Below, piece by piece: positions 18,819-28,077 of a stretch of 49,494 bases of DNA. The DNA comes from a virus: the IMG/VR virus record IMGVR_UViG_3300019476_000014, positions 1 to 49,494 of that record; one strand, given 5' to 3'. Position 1 is the first letter of the stretch; every line of letters begins with the position of its first letter. Under the pieces are notes generated by a model. The model had not been told where the DNA came from. It saw nothing but the letters and a program-made list of their open reading frames with translations, and made no database searches. The position numbers and the translations under genes were made by a program.

Positions 18819-18904
18819 TGGTCCCCTTGATGAGAGTCGAACTCATACTCCTTACTGGAACCCGGGTTTGAGCCGAGCGCGTCTGCCTGTTCCGCCACAA
18901 GGGG
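18819..18904 (-). tRNA. tRNA-Leu (anticodon CAA), class II, CCA encoded
   Basis: Hand fold of the reverse complement: CCCCTTG-TG-GCG/GAACAGGCAGA/CGC-G-CTCGG/CTCAAAC/CCGGG-TTCCAGTAAGGAGT-ATGAG/TTCGACT/CTCAT-CAAGGGG-A-CCA. Features: 7/7 acceptor pairs, 3-bp D stem, long variable arm, 86 nt. Confidence 0.85.
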
Positions 18905-21992: not shown

Positions 21993-22672
21993 CGTGACTT
22001 GACCCACTACCTACTAGCCCCATAGAAAGGTGGGTATGCACTGAAAATACACGCGGGGGTATGACACCCCCGCCTCTCCCCTTCCCCCTATAGCATTTGA
22101 TTTTCTTTTTGTCAAGTCGAGGGGCCCCCAAATCCCCTCCCATGTTCCTCTACCACAACTCCCCCAATTTGTCAAATTATGCGCCCCTGGTCAATGTGTA
22201 AAGACAATCTTGTCACTCTGTCAACTCAAGTCCCCCTCCAACTCGCGTGACTTGCATCATATGACCCCAGTCACAAATCAATGCTGCGTGACTTGCATCA
22301 TGTGATGCATTTCATACTGCGTGACTCACATCATATGACCTGACTCACATTTTCAATGCTGCGTGTCCTCTGTCACGTACAGCTGCGTGACTTGCATCAT
22401 GTGATCTCCGTCACCTGCGTTGTTCACCCCACATGATCTACATCACGATAGTGGTCCAGGACACAAGAATAAAGCTTACTCGGAAATTATACTCGGGTTA
22501 ATACTTAACCTCACCGTTACCTTCGTGACTTGCAACCTAGGACTTTAGTCATGCATCGTGACCTGCATTACATGACCTGGATCACACTTCGTGACTCACA
22601 CCACGTGATAGACACCACAAGCGCAGACCCCCATTTTTGCGAAAGTCTTTTTCCTGCGTGACCACACTCACG
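21993..22672 (+). repeat. Repeat array A: about 10 direct copies of the (C)TGCGTGACTTGCATCATGTGA family
   Basis: Copies read at 21993, 22245, 22284, 22317, 22358 (degenerate), 22383, 22521, 22554, 22587 and 22654. The best three are identical over about 20 nt; spacing is irregular (about 30-120 nt). Confidence 0.85.
22053..22073. other. GC hairpin gcggggg-tatgaca-cccccgc
   Basis: Perfect 7-bp inverted repeat read directly. Confidence 0.6.
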
Positions 22673-22780
22673 AAGCACAAGTAAAGTCGTGTTTACCTTT
22701 GTATCAACTTGCACGAACTGACATGATCTATTCGTCAGAGTGTCAGGAGAAAAAATTCTCGCGAAAACCCCCTTTTTCGC

Positions 22781-22980
22781 TGATTATTTCTAGATTTTTC
22801 TCTTAAAATACAATCAGCAAATTATTACCTACAGAGAATAGTCATAAAACATAGTTGTAATAATCATGTTCTATACACAAGATGTTCTAAAATAGATAAT
22901 ATTCTTAATACTATAGATAATATTATTACTAATAAAGAAAATAAAAAGATCCACGTAAAGAAATCATAGAAAAGTAGTAG
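22781..22980. other. AT-rich island (possible DNA unwinding element or curved DNA)
   Basis: Hand counts of three 60-nt lines (22801, 22861, 22921) give 15, 12 and 13 G+C, i.e. 20-25 %. TAGATAATATT recurs at 22893 and 22914, 21 nt apart. Confidence 0.7.
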
Positions 22981-23386
22981 GTGGTCAGTTTTTACTCATG
23001 TGTCCCCCGTCACCCTTCTGTGGAAAAAACGCTCTAAAACGCCCTCTCACGCTCTTATCTCCCCCTACCTAGGCCATGACACTATCCCCACCCTAAAACT
23101 CGCTCAGATCGCCTTCTAGACCCCTTAACGACGGTCCTAGCATCCAACGTCAGCCTCTAACCCTGTTGTCGCCACGCTGTGCATACGCGTATACCACATC
23201 AGCTTTCAAAATGCAAAACCGTTCCGTATTTTGAGATGTCAAGTAAAACGCATGTCTTAAGCCTAAAGTGTTATCTGTTTCACTCTTAAATTCCTTGACT
23301 TTTTTCTTTCGAAGGTATAAACTGTCAGGGTCACCGCCCTCAGTATGTGTAGAGAACACACAGCACGCACCAAAGCAACGAGGCCG

Positions 23387-23706
23387 CTAAGGGGGGCTGT
23401 CGAACCGTAACACGACACAGGGGGCTGTCGAGCAGATCTAAGGGGGGCCGTGCACAGCAACGAAGCACACAGGCATGAGGCCTGTCGAAGCACCCTTATG
23501 TCGAACACAGCATGCCCATGCACATAAGGGGGTGTCGAAGCACGAACACGCCTAAGGCCTGCTGTCGAACACACACACACACGCCTAAGGGGGTGTCGAA
23601 GGCGCTTGAAGGGCCGCTAAGCCTTGTCGTAGTAGCTAGGGGCCTTGTCGTAGTAACGAGGGGGGCTCCCCCCTTGCTCGTCGTAGCTGCCTTGCCCCTG
23701 TCGCTC
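23387..23706 (+). repeat. Repeat array B: about 10-12 copies of (C)TAAGGGGG(C)TGTCGAA(G/C), with degenerate CCTTGTCGTAGTA variants
   Basis: Copies read at 23387, 23417, 23438, 23477, 23495, 23524, 23551, 23584, 23616, 23636 and 23694. Also an (AC)7 run at 23569-23582 and the palindrome GGGGGGCTCCCCCC at 23660-23673. Confidence 0.8.
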
Positions 23707-23724
23707 AAACACCTCGCACACGAT

Positions 23725-23742
23725 GTGATGCAGGTCACGCAG
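23725..23742 (-). repeat. Inverted copy of the array A motif next to the rightward promoter candidate
   Basis: The plus strand reads gtgatgcaggtcacgcag, which is the reverse complement of CTGCGTGACCTGCATCAC. It ends 8 nt before the TTGACA -35. Confidence 0.7.
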
Positions 23743-23749
23743 ACTTGAG

Positions 23750-23779
23750 TTGACACTCTGACAGACGCTGCGCTAAGCT
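23750..23779 (+). promoter_or_regulatory. Candidate rightward promoter (TTGACA-18-TAAGCT)
   Basis: agTTGACActctgacagacgctgcgcTAAGCTtgag. The -10 resembles that of the leftward candidate. Confidence 0.4.
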
Positions 23780-23883
23780 TGAGTCATCGGCAAGGGAAAC
23801 AGCCCAAAGGCCAAAACCAAAGACCGCCGTGAGGCGGGCAAGCCCCCTGATCCGAACGATCTTGACTGTAAACTAAATGACGT

Positions 23884-23939
23884 GGAAGGCGACGGCTTGC
23901 ACCGTCGCGACGGGGTTGGCACCCCTGTCGAACGCTTCC
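23884..23939 (+). ncRNA. Compact three-way-junction RNA fold (function unknown)
   Basis: Outer helix ggaag..cttcc encloses two hairpins with the same 5' arm: cgacgg-cttgca-ccgtcg and cgacgggg-ttggca-cccc(t)gtcg. Confidence 0.3.
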
Positions 23940-23991
23940 ACAGGCCAGATGCTAGCGCACAGGGTAGCCGCCCACCGCGCTGCATACTTCA

Positions 23992-24058
23992 GAGCCGCGC
24001 CCCTGTCGTGCTGAGCGACGGTGGCGGGTGAAGGCAGGTTCGATTCCTGCCCGGCTCA
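23992..24058 (+). ncRNA. tRNA-like element TL1 (67 nt): acceptor stem, one long hairpin, canonical T-arm; no D-arm, no CCA
   Basis: gagccg(c)...(c)cggctc acceptor helix (6 bp plus a C-C), central hairpin cgcc-c-ctgtcg/TGCTGAG/cgacgg-t-ggcg, T-arm gcagg/TTCGATT/cctgc, then A. Confidence 0.45.
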
Positions 24059-24154
24059 CGACGACACACGTCACGAAGCTTCCAGTTGACAGAGTGACAA
24101 CACCCCGTGTAAGCTGAAGCCACAACAAACCAAACGAGACCGAAAGGCCCAACC

Positions 24155-24376
24155 ATGACACACCTGGTCAACCTCACCGACGAGTACACCCGCGTCCCCA
24201 CCCTCACCCGCATCGCAGGCGACTACGACCGCTACAAGGAATGGTTCGCCCTCGTACCCGGCTTCAACGCCTACGACGCAGCCAAGTGGGCACAGCGCGT
24301 CATGCGCGGCCTGAACGGCGACCGACAGGCACTGAGCCAGCTCGAAGACGCAGGGTTCGCCCTCACCGTCTACTGA
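24155..24376 (+). CDS. Hypothetical protein (73 aa), first gene of the rightward arm
   Basis: RBS cgaaaggcccaaccATG. Confidence 0.6.
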   Translation: MTHLVNLTDEYTRVPTLTRIAGDYDRYKEWFALVPGFNAYDAAKWAQRVMRGLNGDRQALSQLEDAGFALTVY

Positions 24377-24442
24377 CCACCAACCAACGCCCGGCCCTGA
24401 TCACAACCACACGCGGGGCCGGGCACCCCAAGGAAACCAACA

Positions 24443-24907
24443 ATGAACATCACCGCCCTAGCAGCCACCGCCCTACTCGCCACAGCACCCGTCAGTGTCA
24501 CCGCCACCGAAACCAACAACGACGGACTCACAGTAGAATACGTCCCCCTTGACCAAGTGCCCGACTGGTATACGACAGTCCCCTACATGCACACCGGGGT
24601 ATGCATGATCACTGAGCAAGACATCACCTGTGCCACCGACACGCAGTGGAAACGCGCCACCTTCCACGACAGGTACACACAAGCACTATACAAGCTCATC
24701 CGAAAGGAACCGACAATGAACCAGCTGACCACAATCACCGACGTGTACGACGAAATCAAGACCACCCTTGGCGAGTTCGTGGGTGACTTCAACATTGAAG
24801 GCATCGCCAACGACGGCTACATCTTCAACCCCGCAACCCAGACATTCGAACCCTCCCCCGAGGTCCCGTTCTGGGCAGCTGTCGAAGCCAACGCACGCCA
24901 CAACTAG
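24443..24907 (+). CDS. Hypothetical protein (154 aa) with a signal-peptide-like N-terminus
   Basis: MNITALAATALLATAPVSVTA... ; RBS ccaaggaaaccaacaATG. Confidence 0.6.
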   Translation: MNITALAATALLATAPVSVTATETNNDGLTVEYVPLDQVPDWYTTVPYMHTGVCMITEQDITCATDTQWKRATFHDRYTQALYKLIRKEPTMNQLTTITDVYDEIKTTLGEFVGDFNIEGIANDGYIFNPATQTFEPSPEVPFWAAVEANARHN

Positions 24908-24919
24908 CCCAACAAGACA

Positions 24920-24967
24920 TCCCCGCATCAATGGCGACAAAGCCGGGTTCAATCCCCGGGCGGGGAA
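24920..24967 (+). ncRNA. tRNA-like minihelix TL2 (48 nt)
   Basis: TCCCCGC-atcaatggcgacaaag-CCGGG/TTCAATC/CCCGG-GCGGGGA-a. 7/7 acceptor pairs and a canonical GG-TTCAATC-CC T-arm. Starts 13 nt after a stop codon. Confidence 0.5.
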
Positions 24968-25020
24968 CGAAGCACCCTCAACAGGTGAGGGCGCTCAACC
25001 CAATACCGAAAGGCAGAACC

Positions 25021-25269
25021 ATGTCGAAGACCTACAAGACCGATCCCTGGGACGTGAAGGAAGCACGCGGTGTCGCGTGGCACCCCCGGGAGTTCCGCAG
25101 GGAGCGCTCTCTGCACACCCGGGACCTGAGCAAGCGTATTCGCGCGAGGGAGCGCCGGGAGATGGAGCGGATTACCCACGACCTTGAAGCTTGGGAGTCC
25201 TACTACCCGACCGGGGCAACCCTCCGTGAGTTCGAGACCGCTACGAACAAGGATGGGTGGCAGTACTGA
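25021..25269 (+). CDS. Hypothetical basic protein (82 aa)
   Basis: RBS cgaaaggcagaaccATG. The longer track ORF would run through TL2. Confidence 0.55.
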   Translation: MSKTYKTDPWDVKEARGVAWHPREFRRERSLHTRDLSKRIRARERREMERITHDLEAWESYYPTGATLREFETATNKDGWQY

Positions 25270-25589
25270 TGACAACCATCAAGGCAACACTCCAGAACCT
25301 GCGGAACAACGGTTGGGGCTACTACCCCTGCCTTGTCGGTGGAAAGCTTCACATCAACCGGGACGAGAACTTGTACATGCTCGTGCGCAATGACACCCAC
25401 GAGATTGTGTGCCAGTGGAATAAGCACACGGGCGTCGTGTGGGTTCTCGGGGAACTCGCTTGGCATGAGAAGAGCGTCATTAACCAGATCATTGAGGTAT
25501 GGCGGCCCTGGTACAAGGTTGACTGGGAGACCTGGGAGGCCACTCACCGCAAGGCGTACAAGACCCTACTCCCCTTGAAGAGTCTGTGA
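25269..25589 (+). CDS. Hypothetical protein (106 aa), paralog of 25596..25925
   Basis: The ATG overlaps the upstream stop (TGATG). Shared ...VC.W......G........L...EK.......W......KW..WEA pattern. Confidence 0.6.
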   Translation: MTTIKATLQNLRNNGWGYYPCLVGGKLHINRDENLYMLVRNDTHEIVCQWNKHTGVVWVLGELAWHEKSVINQIIEVWRPWYKVDWETWEATHRKAYKTLLPLKSL

Positions 25590-25595
25590 GCTGAC

Positions 25596-25925
25596 ATGAC
25601 GATTCGGGACACCCTACAAAGCGCTTACCCTGACTCCCAGTTCATGGGGACGCGTCGCCTCGGATCCAAGTACACGCTGTGTCGTGGGATGAATGGGTTT
25701 TTTATTCAGAACCGGCTCACCGGCACAGTCGTGTGCACTTGGGATGCGGACGGCAACCTGTACGCTAATTCCTCGGGGCTGTCGCCATACGAAAAACGGC
25801 TTGTCAGCATGGTCTTGCGGATATGGCGAGATGCACCACCCATCAAGTGGGACATATGGGAAGCACACGCTGTCCGCATGGACGACAGGTGGGGGCGTGA
25901 GTATGGCCTCGTAAGCACACCCTGA
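25596..25925 (+). CDS. Hypothetical protein (109 aa), paralog of 25269..25589
   Basis: Alignment by eye with the preceding gene. Confidence 0.6.
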   Translation: MTIRDTLQSAYPDSQFMGTRRLGSKYTLCRGMNGFFIQNRLTGTVVCTWDADGNLYANSSGLSPYEKRLVSMVLRIWRDAPPIKWDIWEAHAVRMDDRWGREYGLVSTP

Positions 25926-25933
25926 GAAGGGTA

Positions 25934-25982
25934 TCCCGGCCCTGTCGGTAGGTAAATGTGGGTTCGACTCCCACGCCGGGAA
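25934..25982 (+). ncRNA. tRNA-like minihelix TL3 (49 nt)
   Basis: TCCCGGC-cct/gtcggt/agg-taaat-GTGGG/TTCGACT/CCCAC-GCCGGGA-a. 7/7 acceptor pairs; starts 9 nt after a stop codon. Confidence 0.5.
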
Positions 25983-26018
25983 CAACAATCAGTGCCAACA
26001 GAAAGGAACCCACCCTCG

Positions 26019-26330
26019 ATGAACGACTACCTGAAGACAATCATCAAAGCCCAGTCCCTCGTCAAGCAGCTTCTGAACGACACCACATTCGGCAAGTTCA
26101 CACTCGGGGACATTACGATTAGCAAGCCAGAAGACCTACACAAAAACTTCCAAATTGGTACCCTCATTACGATCGGTGTTTCGGAGTGGTTCCTTACCCT
26201 TGCTGATTCTGAGTCCGTTTGGCAGAACTATTATCAGGGTGTCGTCTTGGACAGTGAGGGCCTGTACATTCTTATACTGAAGGCCCTTGAGGAAGATATG
26301 GCCGTAGAGCTTCTACACAAGGGAGCGTGA
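26019..26330 (+). CDS. Hypothetical protein (103 aa)
   Basis: RBS gaaaggaacccaccctcgATG. The longer track ORF would overlap TL3. Confidence 0.55.
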   Translation: MNDYLKTIIKAQSLVKQLLNDTTFGKFTLGDITISKPEDLHKNFQIGTLITIGVSEWFLTLADSESVWQNYYQGVVLDSEGLYILILKALEEDMAVELLHKGA

Positions 26331-26331
26331 C

Positions 26332-26646
26332 ATGACATCTCTGGATGCCTACAACCGCAAGATTGACAATCTTCGAGAGACTGCCCGGTTCCTTAAGGAT
26401 GCCGACAAGGTGAGACTCAAGAGACCTCAAGGGGATTTCATCCCAATCCGAAAACCATCAGACCTACTTCTGATGCCGGGGACTGTCATAGCCTGTTACT
26501 CCTTGGCAAGGGTGTTCATGCTTCGTGAAGATGGTCTTTGGTATAGTGACTGTGTTCACAGACGTAACGGTGGCGTCTACACATGTGATGAGCTGTTTAC
26601 ATACCTGAAAGGCTCATCGCACCCCTTTGAGATTATCTACAAATAA
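26332..26646 (+). CDS. Hypothetical protein (104 aa), weakly similar to 26019..26330
   Basis: TGAcATG junction with the upstream gene; shared KP.DL....GT.I motif. Confidence 0.55.
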   Translation: MTSLDAYNRKIDNLRETARFLKDADKVRLKRPQGDFIPIRKPSDLLLMPGTVIACYSLARVFMLREDGLWYSDCVHRRNGGVYTCDELFTYLKGSSHPFEIIYK

Positions 26647-26651
26647 TCTCA

Positions 26652-26701
26652 TCCCTGTCCTCGTTTGGGAGGCTCGCTAGGTTCGATCCCTAGGCAGGGA
26701 G
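26652..26701 (+). ncRNA. tRNA-like minihelix TL4 (50 nt)
   Basis: TCCCTGT-cctc/gtttgg/gagg-ctcg-CTAGG/TTCGATC/CCTAG-GCAGGGA-g. Six Watson-Crick pairs plus one G-U in the acceptor stem; starts 6 nt after a stop codon. Confidence 0.5.
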
Positions 26702-26738
26702 CGACAGAAAAAACAAACAAGACCGAAAGGTAAAAATC

Positions 26739-27191
26739 ATGCTGTCACGCAAATGCGCAGAATGGATCATTGGACCCGAACTGACACCCGAACTCGCAGC
26801 CACCATTATGGATGGTGGGCTGCAAGGTAGCGACATCTGGGATGACGTGTGCACGTTCGCAGGTGGCTGGTGCAATGACACCAATGTTTTCCTTATGTGG
26901 GACGCTATGGGGCGTCCCGACGAAAGCGAGTACTTGGAACCCGAGTACGATATGGAACGGGACCCTGAGCGTCGCCGTGCCATTGTCGCTAACGCCCGCA
27001 TCTCAGCTATGGCACAGCTCATCGCAGACGATTTGATCAGCGTCGTGGAAGAGATCCTGGTTCGTGATGGCTGGGCCATTCGCCCCGCGTCTGAGGTGGA
27101 AGCTGAAACTGTCGGCTGGGTTGAGGATGGGTGCGACGCCCTTGGCTTCGCAGGTGAAGGCTACCTGTTCGCTCCTGAAAGTGAGAACTGA
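26739..27191 (+). CDS. Acidic hypothetical protein (150 aa)
   Basis: RBS gaccgaaaggtaaaaatcATG. Confidence 0.6.
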   Translation: MLSRKCAEWIIGPELTPELAATIMDGGLQGSDIWDDVCTFAGGWCNDTNVFLMWDAMGRPDESEYLEPEYDMERDPERRRAIVANARISAMAQLIADDLISVVEEILVRDGWAIRPASEVEAETVGWVEDGCDALGFAGEGYLFAPESEN

Positions 27192-27192
27192 G

Positions 27193-27357
27193 ATGGTTAT
27201 CCTTGGACTTATTCTTAGCATCTTCGTAGCTGTGTTGGGGGCCTTTCTACTAGTAACAGCTAAGGATGACGCTCTTGGTAGTATCTCAGGAACGGTTTTC
27301 GCAATTCTCGGCTCCATGTGGGCTGGGTTCTACTATGCAATGCTGATGGGCTGGTGA
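27193..27357 (+). CDS. Small membrane protein (54 aa, 2 TM)
   Basis: MVILGLILSIFVAVLGAFLLV...GTVFAILGSMWAGFYYAMLMGW. The ATG lies 1 nt after the upstream stop. Confidence 0.55.
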   Translation: MVILGLILSIFVAVLGAFLLVTAKDDALGSISGTVFAILGSMWAGFYYAMLMGW

Positions 27358-27361
27358 CAAC

Positions 27362-27754
27362 ATGTGGGAAGAATTGATTGGAGAGATTACTAAGCAGGAT
27401 GAGTTCCGTTCCTACCTCGACAAGTTGCAATTGTCTGTTGCAGGGTATGTCAAGGATGATGTGGGCTGGGACCTGACAGCTATCAACCCGTGGTTTGTTG
27501 AACGAGGGTACGAGTTCGTCGGCTACTTGGACCTGTTCAGTGAAAACGAGCCATCTGGCATCTTCGTCGCTGTCGAAGGTCTCGTATGGCGGTGCAACAC
27601 CAACACAGGCGACAACCAACAGTACTGGTATTTCGAGACCGAGGCGAGCGAAGGTGTGAGCCTTGATGACATGTGTTTCCTACATGGCTGGGCACACCAG
27701 TTCATCTGGGATTCAGATGATAAAGAATGCTACATCGTGAACATTGCGGAATGA
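27362..27754 (+). CDS. Hypothetical protein (130 aa)
   Basis: ORF-track ORF in the co-oriented gene series. Confidence 0.55.
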   Translation: MWEELIGEITKQDEFRSYLDKLQLSVAGYVKDDVGWDLTAINPWFVERGYEFVGYLDLFSENEPSGIFVAVEGLVWRCNTNTGDNQQYWYFETEASEGVSLDDMCFLHGWAHQFIWDSDDKECYIVNIAE

Positions 27755-27762
27755 AAGGAACA

Positions 27763-28077
27763 ATGATGTACGGAAAGATTGACCCTAAACTGCTTGTCGA
27801 TTGGGAGCTGCGAAAGTCGTATAGCTCTGAAGAGCTTGGGATTGAACCAGACTTATGGGATTACGTCAAGAAAGATGGTTCCCTCATGACTCTCGAAAGC
27901 CTTGAGGATGCTTGCACGTGCGTGTTCGACAAAGCGAATAAGTCTAGTCTCATCTTTGGGAAGGTCTACACTGCGAGTCAGGTTGCACGCGAAGTCGCGT
28001 GGGACGATTGGAACGACTACGTGAAGGATACACTGTCAACTATGTGTGTCGAAGGCATTATCCGTCGGATTAACTGA
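27763..28077 (+). CDS. Hypothetical protein (104 aa)
   Basis: RBS gaaaggaacaATGATG. An alternative start at 27751 overlaps the upstream stop. Confidence 0.5.
   Translation: MMYGKIDPKLLVDWELRKSYSSEELGIEPDLWDYVKKDGSLMTLESLEDACTCVFDKANKSSLIFGKVYTASQVAREVAWDDWNDYVKDTLSTMCVEGIIRRIN

Follow-up and report, generated by a model that had tools for sequence, protein, structure and literature searches.

The window analysed here is the whole of IMG/VR virus record IMGVR_UViG_3300019476_000014 (49,494 nucleotides, nt), a complete 49.5-kilobase (kb) contig of an uncultured tailed phage. Between two divergent operons lies a non-coding region of 2 kb that is rich in repeats. The rightward operon departs from this region, and within its first 3 kb three short tRNA-like (TL) elements, TL2, TL3 and TL4, alternate with small genes (Table 1). 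Each resembles the top half of a transfer RNA (tRNA). An earlier note on this DNA had pointed them out behind the stop codons of early genes, and its coordinates and sequences for all three match base for base. The TL elements are members of a conserved family and not chance matches. This family is widespread, strongly supported and apparently undescribed.

Table 1. Elements, hairpins, genes and repeats of the window, with related classes found in other contigs
Feature	Position	Strand	Remarks
Non-coding region between divergent operons	22150-24150		2 kb
Six iterons of about 31 nt	22245-22586		GCGTGACTTGCATCATATGAC...
Perfect 17-nt inverted copy	22210-22226 and 24084-24100		AGTTGACAGAGTGACAA
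GGGGG(C)TGTCGAA repeats	23387-23601
Promoter-like TTGACA-18 nt-TAAGCT copies	23750-23779 and 24086-24115		read by eye; flank TL1
TL1, longer fourth tRNA-like element	23992-24058	+	structural scan, RNAfold z -3.6; covariance model 25.8 bits, E 8.5e-5
Small hairpin GACG-ACACA-CGTC	24060-24072	+	1 nt past TL1 discriminator; longer in relatives
Gene, 154 amino acids (aa)	24443-24907	+	ends 12 nt before TL2; no family match; independent gene call in L359
TL2	24920-24967	+	covariance model 58.6 bits; acceptor strands 24920-24926/24960-24966; D-arm-like ATC/AATGGC/GAC 24927-24938; linker AAAG; T-arm 24943-24959, loop TTCAATC; discriminator A24967, then C24968
Hairpin AGC-A-CCCTCA/ACAGG/TGAGGG-C-GCT	24971-24995	+	3 nt past TL2 discriminator; -13.9 kcal/mol
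Three tightly packed genes, 82, 106 and 109 aa	25021-25925	+	between TL2 and TL3; last two are paralogues
82-aa arginine-rich protein (…REFRRERSLHTRDLSKRIRARERREMER…)	25021-25269	+	always just downstream of TL2-type elements
Hairpin ACCCT-GAGA-AGGGT	25919-25932	+	ends 1 nt before TL3; contains stop codon TGA (25923-25925) of upstream gene
TL3	25934-25982	+	covariance model 63.9 bits; acceptor strands 25934-25940/25975-25981; D-arm CCT/GTCGGT/AGG 25941-25952; linker TAAAT; T-arm 25958-25974, loop TTCGACT; discriminator A25982
Two genes, 103 and 104 aa	26019-26646	+	between TL3 and TL4; no detectable paralogy
TL4	26652-26701	+	covariance model 45.1 bits; acceptor strands 26652-26658/26694-26700, one wobble U7.G66; D-arm CCTC/GTTTGG/GAGG 26659-26672; linker CTCG; T-arm 26677-26693, loop TTCGATC; discriminator G26701
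Gene, 150 aa	26739-27191	+	starts 37 nt after TL4
tRNA-Leu(CAA)	18819-18904	-	CCA encoded
Other anticodon-less classes (other viral contigs)	L030, L031, L035, L037, L045, L072, L077, L119, L122; L033-L054 group; L289, L298, L306, L310, L335

A structural scan of both strands recovers TL2, TL3 and TL4 with acceptor helices of 7 base pairs (bp) and T stems of 5 bp, and adds a longer fourth element, TL1. The scan agrees with the earlier description of the T-loop and of the unpaired purine in the discriminator position (A, A and G); the acceptor of TL4 includes one U.G pair. Only 16-18 nt lie between acceptor and T stem, leaving no anticodon arm, and CCA is not encoded. In the RNAfold predictions TL3 and TL4 form a three-way junction, and TL2 forms the acceptor helix. 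With a covariance model built from relatives, the E-values of the three range from 4e-10 to 2e-15. The T-arm motif GGTTCRAWYCC occurs four times in the window, against 0.18 occurrences expected.

As the earlier note had anticipated, ARAGORN calls no tRNA at TL2-TL4; its single call in the window is tRNA-Leu(CAA), which is also the only match to Rfam 15 at gathering thresholds. The 3'-half match to the tRNA family RF00005 that the note expected did not appear: in E-value mode, Rfam gives zero tRNA matches between 24000 and 28000, RF00005 being absent even at E<=10, and only matches at chance level between 22900 and 28000. ARAGORN and Rfam together rule out normal tRNAs with misplaced boundaries. 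Two mechanically called open reading frames (ORFs; 24931-25269 and 25956-26330) cross TL2 and TL3. N-terminal coding extensions are ruled out, since independent gene calls begin at ATG codons supported by ribosome-binding sites (RBSs) and orthologous elements vary by 1-3 nt, which would shift the frame. In a sister contig the independent gene calls leave gaps exactly at TL2, TL3 and TL4.

The search of related phages by covariance model that the note had proposed finds both the elements and compensatory changes within them. The model was built from 66 related elements. Among 24 related loci that were fetched through the helicase, independently of the elements, it detects 50 elements, all of them on the helicase strand and upstream of the helicase. 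A loose pattern, in which only TCCC, the T-loop and GGGA are fixed, matches in more than 119 viral loci, and the six unconstrained stem pairs are all formed in 57 of 108 distinct matches (0.28% by chance). With a pattern free of the acceptor, a perfect coaxial helix of at least 12 bp is present in 43 of 103 matches, compared with 2 of 103 in a displaced control. At least 82 of 238 viral loci carry an element, in at least 89 distinct sequences, and no locus among those carrying them has elements on both strands. ARAGORN makes no tRNA call at the elements in 40 loci.

In the alignment of the 66 elements 99% of cells are paired and double changes are found in 13 of 15 pairs. The covariation score is 0.687, compared with 0.19 for shuffles and 0.06-0.16 for slid registers, and RNAalifold recovers the same helices de novo. 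The 66 rows were preselected for acceptor and T-stem pairing, and the loose-pattern and acceptor-free tests are therefore the firmer evidence. The note's structural reading (acceptor, small D-arm and T-arm, without an anticodon arm or an encoded CCA) is supported, and covariation among relatives strengthens it. Orthologues of TL3, for example, carry compensatory T-stem changes (GTGGG/CCCAC to GAGGG/CCCTC or GCAGG/CCTGC). Identical or near-identical copies of TL2 are present in at least 16 related loci.

The consensus reads, 5' to 3', a 7-bp acceptor, directly followed by a D stem of 3-4 bp with a short loop containing GG, a linker of 4-7 nt, a 5-bp T stem with G53-C61 and the loop TTCRAYY, the 3' strand of the acceptor, and a purine discriminator. 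The covarying D stem begins right after position 7, without a U8/N9 connector. Little or no variation is seen at G53-C61, T54, T55, C56, A58 and the D-loop GG. In the D stem U.G is found in 29 of the 66 elements, and in the other stems G.U outnumbers A.C by 34 to 2, which indicates a single transcribed strand.

Acceptor pairs 1-4 are near-fixed (U-A, C-G, C-G, C-G; UCCC/GGGA), also in loci fetched without reference to the element, whereas covariation is unrestricted at pairs 5-7 and in the T stem. Mycobacteriophage L5 tRNA-Gln(CUG), TCCCCGT...GCGGGGA-G-CCA, has the same acceptor, UCCCCGY...RCGGGGA-G, so that the elements may plausibly have arisen from a tRNA-Gln gene that lost its anticodon arm. 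For tRNA-Asn as the model of the acceptor the picture is mixed: a proteobacterial tRNA-Asn (L186) fits, but L5 tRNA-Asn does not. Such descent, and the resemblance to actinophage tRNA-Gln, would also fit the view that the elements are functionless, decaying tRNA pseudogenes or remnants of attachment sites in tRNA genes. We consider this barely credible, since independent decay would not delete exactly the anticodon arm in at least 89 distinct sequences while other pairs are compensated, and position and strand are too regular. Attachment-site or tRNA-fragment remnants keep the 3' part only, whereas both acceptor strands and the D-arm are present here, in many distinct copies.

The placement of the elements within operons is uniform. 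In 111 of 114 distinct contexts an ORF on the same strand ends no more than 90 nt upstream (median 14 nt), and across the 114 contexts the next RBS-supported start codon follows at a median of 50 nt downstream. Arrays are found in two loci, L139 and L039, where 7-8 elements are interspersed with groups of one or two genes across the first 5-6 kb. In the window the gap from stop codon to element is 12, 8 and 5 nt for TL2, TL3 and TL4, where 6-13 nt had been given earlier, and start codons lie 53, 36 and 37 nt past the respective discriminators. The distance of 40-55 nt to the next RBS that the note reported is right for TL2 (41 nt) and too long for TL3 (18 nt) and TL4 (23 nt). A scan of the gaps gives no promoter or terminator matches; from this and from the orientation of the genes, the elements are probably transcribed within one RNA.

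In 113 of 114 contexts C directly follows the discriminator, with G or T and then A or G behind it, and CCA follows the element in none of 147. The same context, with C74 alone encoded, is frequent at real tRNAs of these and related phages, so that the 3' flank of the elements copies that of genuine tRNA genes. The orthologue of tRNA-Leu(CAA) in L018 has only C after its discriminator, as in the TL elements, and other real tRNAs of related phages (in L082, L055 and L363) likewise encode C alone. In Arthrobacter phage Amigo, the nearest cultured relative, real tRNAs are located between cistrons, and no TL element is found in its genome.

Hairpins are found on both sides of the elements. The 28 nt upstream have a minimum free energy of -6.7 kcal/mol, compared with -3.4 kcal/mol for shuffles; the hairpin often contains the stop codon and its modal end is 1 nt before the element. 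For the 32 nt downstream the values are -9.6 and -4.6 kcal/mol, and the hairpin begins 2-4 nt past the discriminator. Among identical elements the first 20 nt downstream (+1 to +20) are 82% identical, compared with 43% identity upstream.

This linkage to the downstream sequence, together with the intergenic position and the shared orientation of element and genes, would fit an element that works uncut. The fold and its hairpins would then block 3'-5' or 5'-3' exonucleases, as repetitive extragenic palindromic (REP) sequences do, or tune translation from the 5' untranslated region, and three adjacent helices would form a strong structural block. For these roles a simple GC-rich hairpin would suffice, and they would not account for the purine discriminator, C74, the 12-bp stack, the D-loop GG or the invariant residues of the T-loop. 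We regard this explanation as improbable.

The asymmetry of the flanks also bears on an explanation at the level of DNA, in which the elements would be repeats at cassette boundaries that promote recombination and mosaic exchange, comparable to phage boundary sequences or the attC sites of integrons. Immediately upstream of the elements sequence similarity is lost, and gene content between them differs among close relatives, one of which lacks TL3, TL4 and their genes all together. However, the compensatory changes preserve an RNA fold and not a sequence, the U.G pairs of the D stem and the excess of G.U over A.C noted above point to one transcribed strand, and no recombinase is present among the ORFs scanned against Pfam. 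The mosaic junctions are probably a by-product of the repeated sequence, and a recombination role seems very improbable.

The reading that we favour, and which in our judgement stands evenly poised, is that the TL elements may be cis-encoded tRNA mimics used for tRNA-style punctuation of an early polycistronic RNA. Punctuation was one of four hypotheses offered in the earlier note and fits best, given the co-directional and intercistronic positions, the arrays, the flanking hairpins and the tRNA-like 3' context; the proposal that the elements are primers is without support. RNase P, RNase Z and the CCA-adding enzyme read the 12-bp stack, the elbow and the discriminator of a tRNA. The elements appear to have kept these parts, namely a coaxial stack of acceptor and T stem of 12 bp, a T-loop and a purine discriminator, and to have lost the decoding arm. 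The GG of the small D-arm could dock on the T-loop and form an elbow.

On this proposal the elements would be transcribed within the rightward early polycistronic RNA, and host RNase P would cut 5' of U1. The tRNA 3'-end pathway would cut at or just after the discriminator, RNase Z being the likely enzyme because no CCA is encoded. Host enzymes are implied because the Pfam scan of 50 ORFs gives no RNA enzyme encoded by the phage. The upstream mRNA would be left with a small hairpin just past the stop codon at its 3' end, and the downstream mRNA would start 2-4 nt ahead of another hairpin. Hairpins at such ends protect bacterial mRNAs from exonucleases and from decay that depends on the 5' end, and each block of 1-3 translationally coupled genes would therefore become a separately stabilised message. 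An RNA of about 50 nt would be released and could then receive CCA.

Several points weigh against this reading. We infer every mechanistic step in it, cleavage included, from the sequence, and the RNase Z and CCA step would depend on the pathways of the host. Within the window the set of hairpins has gaps: there is none at TL4, none upstream of TL2 and no clear one downstream of TL3. A hairpin 1 nt from the proposed RNase P site could hinder binding of the leader by the RNase P protein, and the elements are confined to the first 3-6 kb of the operon. Acceptor pairs 1-4 are fixed in sequence while pairs 5-7 covary, and to our knowledge RNase P and RNase Z do not require fixed pairs at these positions. 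Conservation beyond the needs of these enzymes suggests another partner, one that reads the sequence.

Such a partner is central to an alternative in which the released RNA of about 50 nt acts in trans, as an abundant early mimic of the acceptor end and elbow of one host tRNA that titrates or redirects a host protein. The host protein might be the GatCAB amidotransferase, a toxin or defence enzyme by which the acceptor or CCA end is modified, or RNase P itself. The elements might thus be an unrecognised class of small RNA that acts on host machinery reading the acceptor end and elbow of tRNA-Gln or tRNA-Asn: top halves of tRNA, elbow included, of which the earliest transcript yields several copies. 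This we think unlikely, if worth keeping in view. The sequence conservation of pairs 1-4 and C74 while other stems covary, the identity of the acceptor with that of L5 tRNA-Gln(CUG), and the presence of several copies per genome in the earliest operon are in its favour. U1-A72 and the D-loop are the elements by which bacterial GatCAB recognises tRNA-Gln and tRNA-Asn, and without an anticodon arm the RNA would neither decode nor be open to attack by anticodon nucleases. However, the candidate partner protein is only hypothetical, and the associated phage proteins have no recognisable function in Pfam or PHROGs. UCCC may reflect common descent in a few phage lineages, and other anticodon-less classes have other acceptors. 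The tight linkage to downstream genes and the flanking hairpins argue for a role in cis. If the trans explanation were true, the elements would be a new kind of host-takeover or anti-defence RNA in an uncultured human-associated phage lineage and several others, and punctuation would serve for release only.

Of known systems, the TL elements under the punctuation reading would work most like the t-elements of plant mitochondria. In these, cuts by RNase P and RNase Z set the 3' and 5' ends of mRNAs and release a small RNA able to receive C or CCA (PMC1920247). t-elements and mitochondrial tRNA punctuation share with the TL elements a tRNA-like fold, a GGTTCRANYCC T-arm, an acceptor helix and a position beside mRNA ends in polycistronic transcripts. 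Unlike the TL elements, which are three-way junctions of 48-50 nt, t-elements are organellar, sporadic and heterogeneous, without a regular module of hairpin, element and hairpin. Cleavage has been mapped in t-elements and is a prediction for the TL elements.

mascRNA and menRNA, from MALAT1 and MEN-beta, are also tRNA mimics of 50-60 nt inside a longer transcript. RNase P and RNase Z reportedly excise mascRNA, to which CCA is then added, and the flanking RNA gains its mature end by the cut (PMC8457004, PMC11693755). These RNAs differ from the TL elements in being eukaryotic and nuclear, with one copy per transcript, and mascRNA keeps a short anticodon stem; the TL elements have none and give no match to the mascRNA-menRNA family (RF01684). 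YrlA, a bacterial Y RNA, is non-coding, and one of its domains imitates the acceptor, T and D arms of tRNA, as the TL elements do. Enzymes that modify and process tRNAs act on YrlA, which occurs in mycobacteriophages too (PMC4201824). It differs in having a Ro60-binding helix, in adjoining the Ro60 (TROVE) gene, and in being a single gene rather than an intercistronic array. At the elements Rfam gives no match to YrlA and no Ro60-binding helix is seen, and no TROVE domain was found among the 50 ORFs scanned, which are not all the ORFs of the window.

The tRNA-like domain of transfer-messenger RNA (tmRNA) resembles the TL elements in its acceptor helix, T-arm, reduced D-loop and lack of an anticodon arm. 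Its halves, however, are about 300 nt apart and enclose a reading frame, and it carries the alanine identity pair G3.U70. The TL element is contiguous, its pair 3-70 is C-G in 55 of 66 elements and G.U in none, and ARAGORN finds no tmRNA in the window. Canonical intercistronic phage tRNA genes share the operon position, the T-loop, the discriminator, the C74-only 3' context and, for L5 tRNA-Gln, the acceptor. The TL elements have the canonical 7-bp acceptor on a 5-bp T stem, T54 T55 C56 R57 A58 and G53-C61. They differ from these genes in lacking the anticodon arm and the linker at positions 8-9, in having a D-arm of 3-4 bp, and in being missed by tRNA finders. The viral 3' tRNA-like structure Tymo_tRNA-like (RF00233) scores 16.1 bits against a gathering score of 40, and the TL elements are internal to the operon of a DNA phage. 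The TL elements thus belong to no Rfam family and lack defining features of tRNA, tmRNA, YrlA and viral 3' tRNA-like structures. The statement of the earlier note that no phage element class of this architecture had been described agrees with our searches of Rfam, of full-text literature and of cultured phage genomes, which gave no description or annotated example. A blastn search with two elements against cultured phages matches only the T-arms of real tRNAs.

Were RNase P and RNase Z to cut at the elements, this would be, as far as we have found, the first dedicated tRNA-punctuation system in bacteriophage operons, built on mimics that no longer decode. Hairpin, 50-nt mimic and hairpin would then form a compact portable module for splitting bacterial polycistronic RNAs. 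The elements are also natural 'top-half' tRNAs under selection, which bears on older ideas of the acceptor/T minihelix as an independent functional unit, and conservation of the acceptor end raises the possibility that phages direct such RNAs at defences or tRNA-binding enzymes of the host. Because the family escapes tRNA finders and Rfam, the covariance model could be used to annotate it in viromes.

Other anticodon-less forms are found in other viral contigs, and the class is therefore broader than this lineage. They include forms of 45-46 nt, forms with acceptor/T stacks of 6+6 bp and 7+6 bp, forms with different acceptor sequences, and one of 57 nt that has a mini hairpin. Those that were checked are intergenic as well, and their discriminator is followed by C. 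Arrays of short elements also contain, on the same strand, longer tRNA-like elements whose internal hairpin is long (L039 208-283, L126 3119-3195 and L214 3003-3073); ARAGORN forces these to Ala(agc) or to an undetermined anticodon.

TL1 in the window is likewise a longer element. It has a 6-bp acceptor (GAGCCG/CGGCTC), a 6-bp T stem (GGCAGG/CCTGCC), the loop TTCGATT and the discriminator A, followed by CGA and a hairpin. Acceptor and T stem are invariant in 20 relatives, and the internal hairpin changes in length and sequence. TL1 may end a short non-coding transcript, because it is placed between two promoter-like copies, on which the promoter scan is silent. A GC-rich hairpin, GCCCGGCC...GGCCGGGC, is also present at 24389-24425 (+), between the genes at 24155-24376 and 24443-24907. 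Its 5' arm is like the start of TL3, and its match to the covariance model is weak (14 bits). It may be a degenerate element, or simply a hairpin for processing or termination.

Matches to Pfam and PHROGs among the 50 ORFs are limited to DNA polymerase A, SNF2 helicase, a terminase domain, dCMP deaminase, AAA_24, DUF669 and Phage_VG64. The 82-aa arginine-rich protein has no family match and belongs to a 90%-identity cluster of 155 members; it is a candidate nucleic-acid binder. The earlier note had placed tandem paralogue pairs before two of the elements. The pair before TL3 is indeed related (25% identity, E 5e-11), and the pair before TL4 shows no similarity. The repeats in the non-coding region are likely an origin or operators with divergent early promoters.

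The terminase of the window is 41% identical to those of Arthrobacter phages, with Amigo among the top matches, and DNA polymerase A and SNF2 helicase are encoded in the window. A megablast search with 24000-28000 gives no match, and there is no close relative among 50,697 deposited phage genomes. The lineage is common: the helicase falls in a 90%-identity cluster of 514 members and the portal in one of 817, labelled at most 'Caudoviricetes sp.'. A scan of genome contigs gives mostly chance matches, and among the matches listed elements are found in three only (L153, L214 and L236), two of which are contigs binned with Atopobium and Actinomyces metagenome-assembled genomes (MAGs). One further contig from a Spirochaetia MAG (L178, CBDCGX010000035.1) has 15 tandem repeats of about 497 nt each with an apparent 3' part of a tRNA-Asp gene, which are unrelated to the TL elements.

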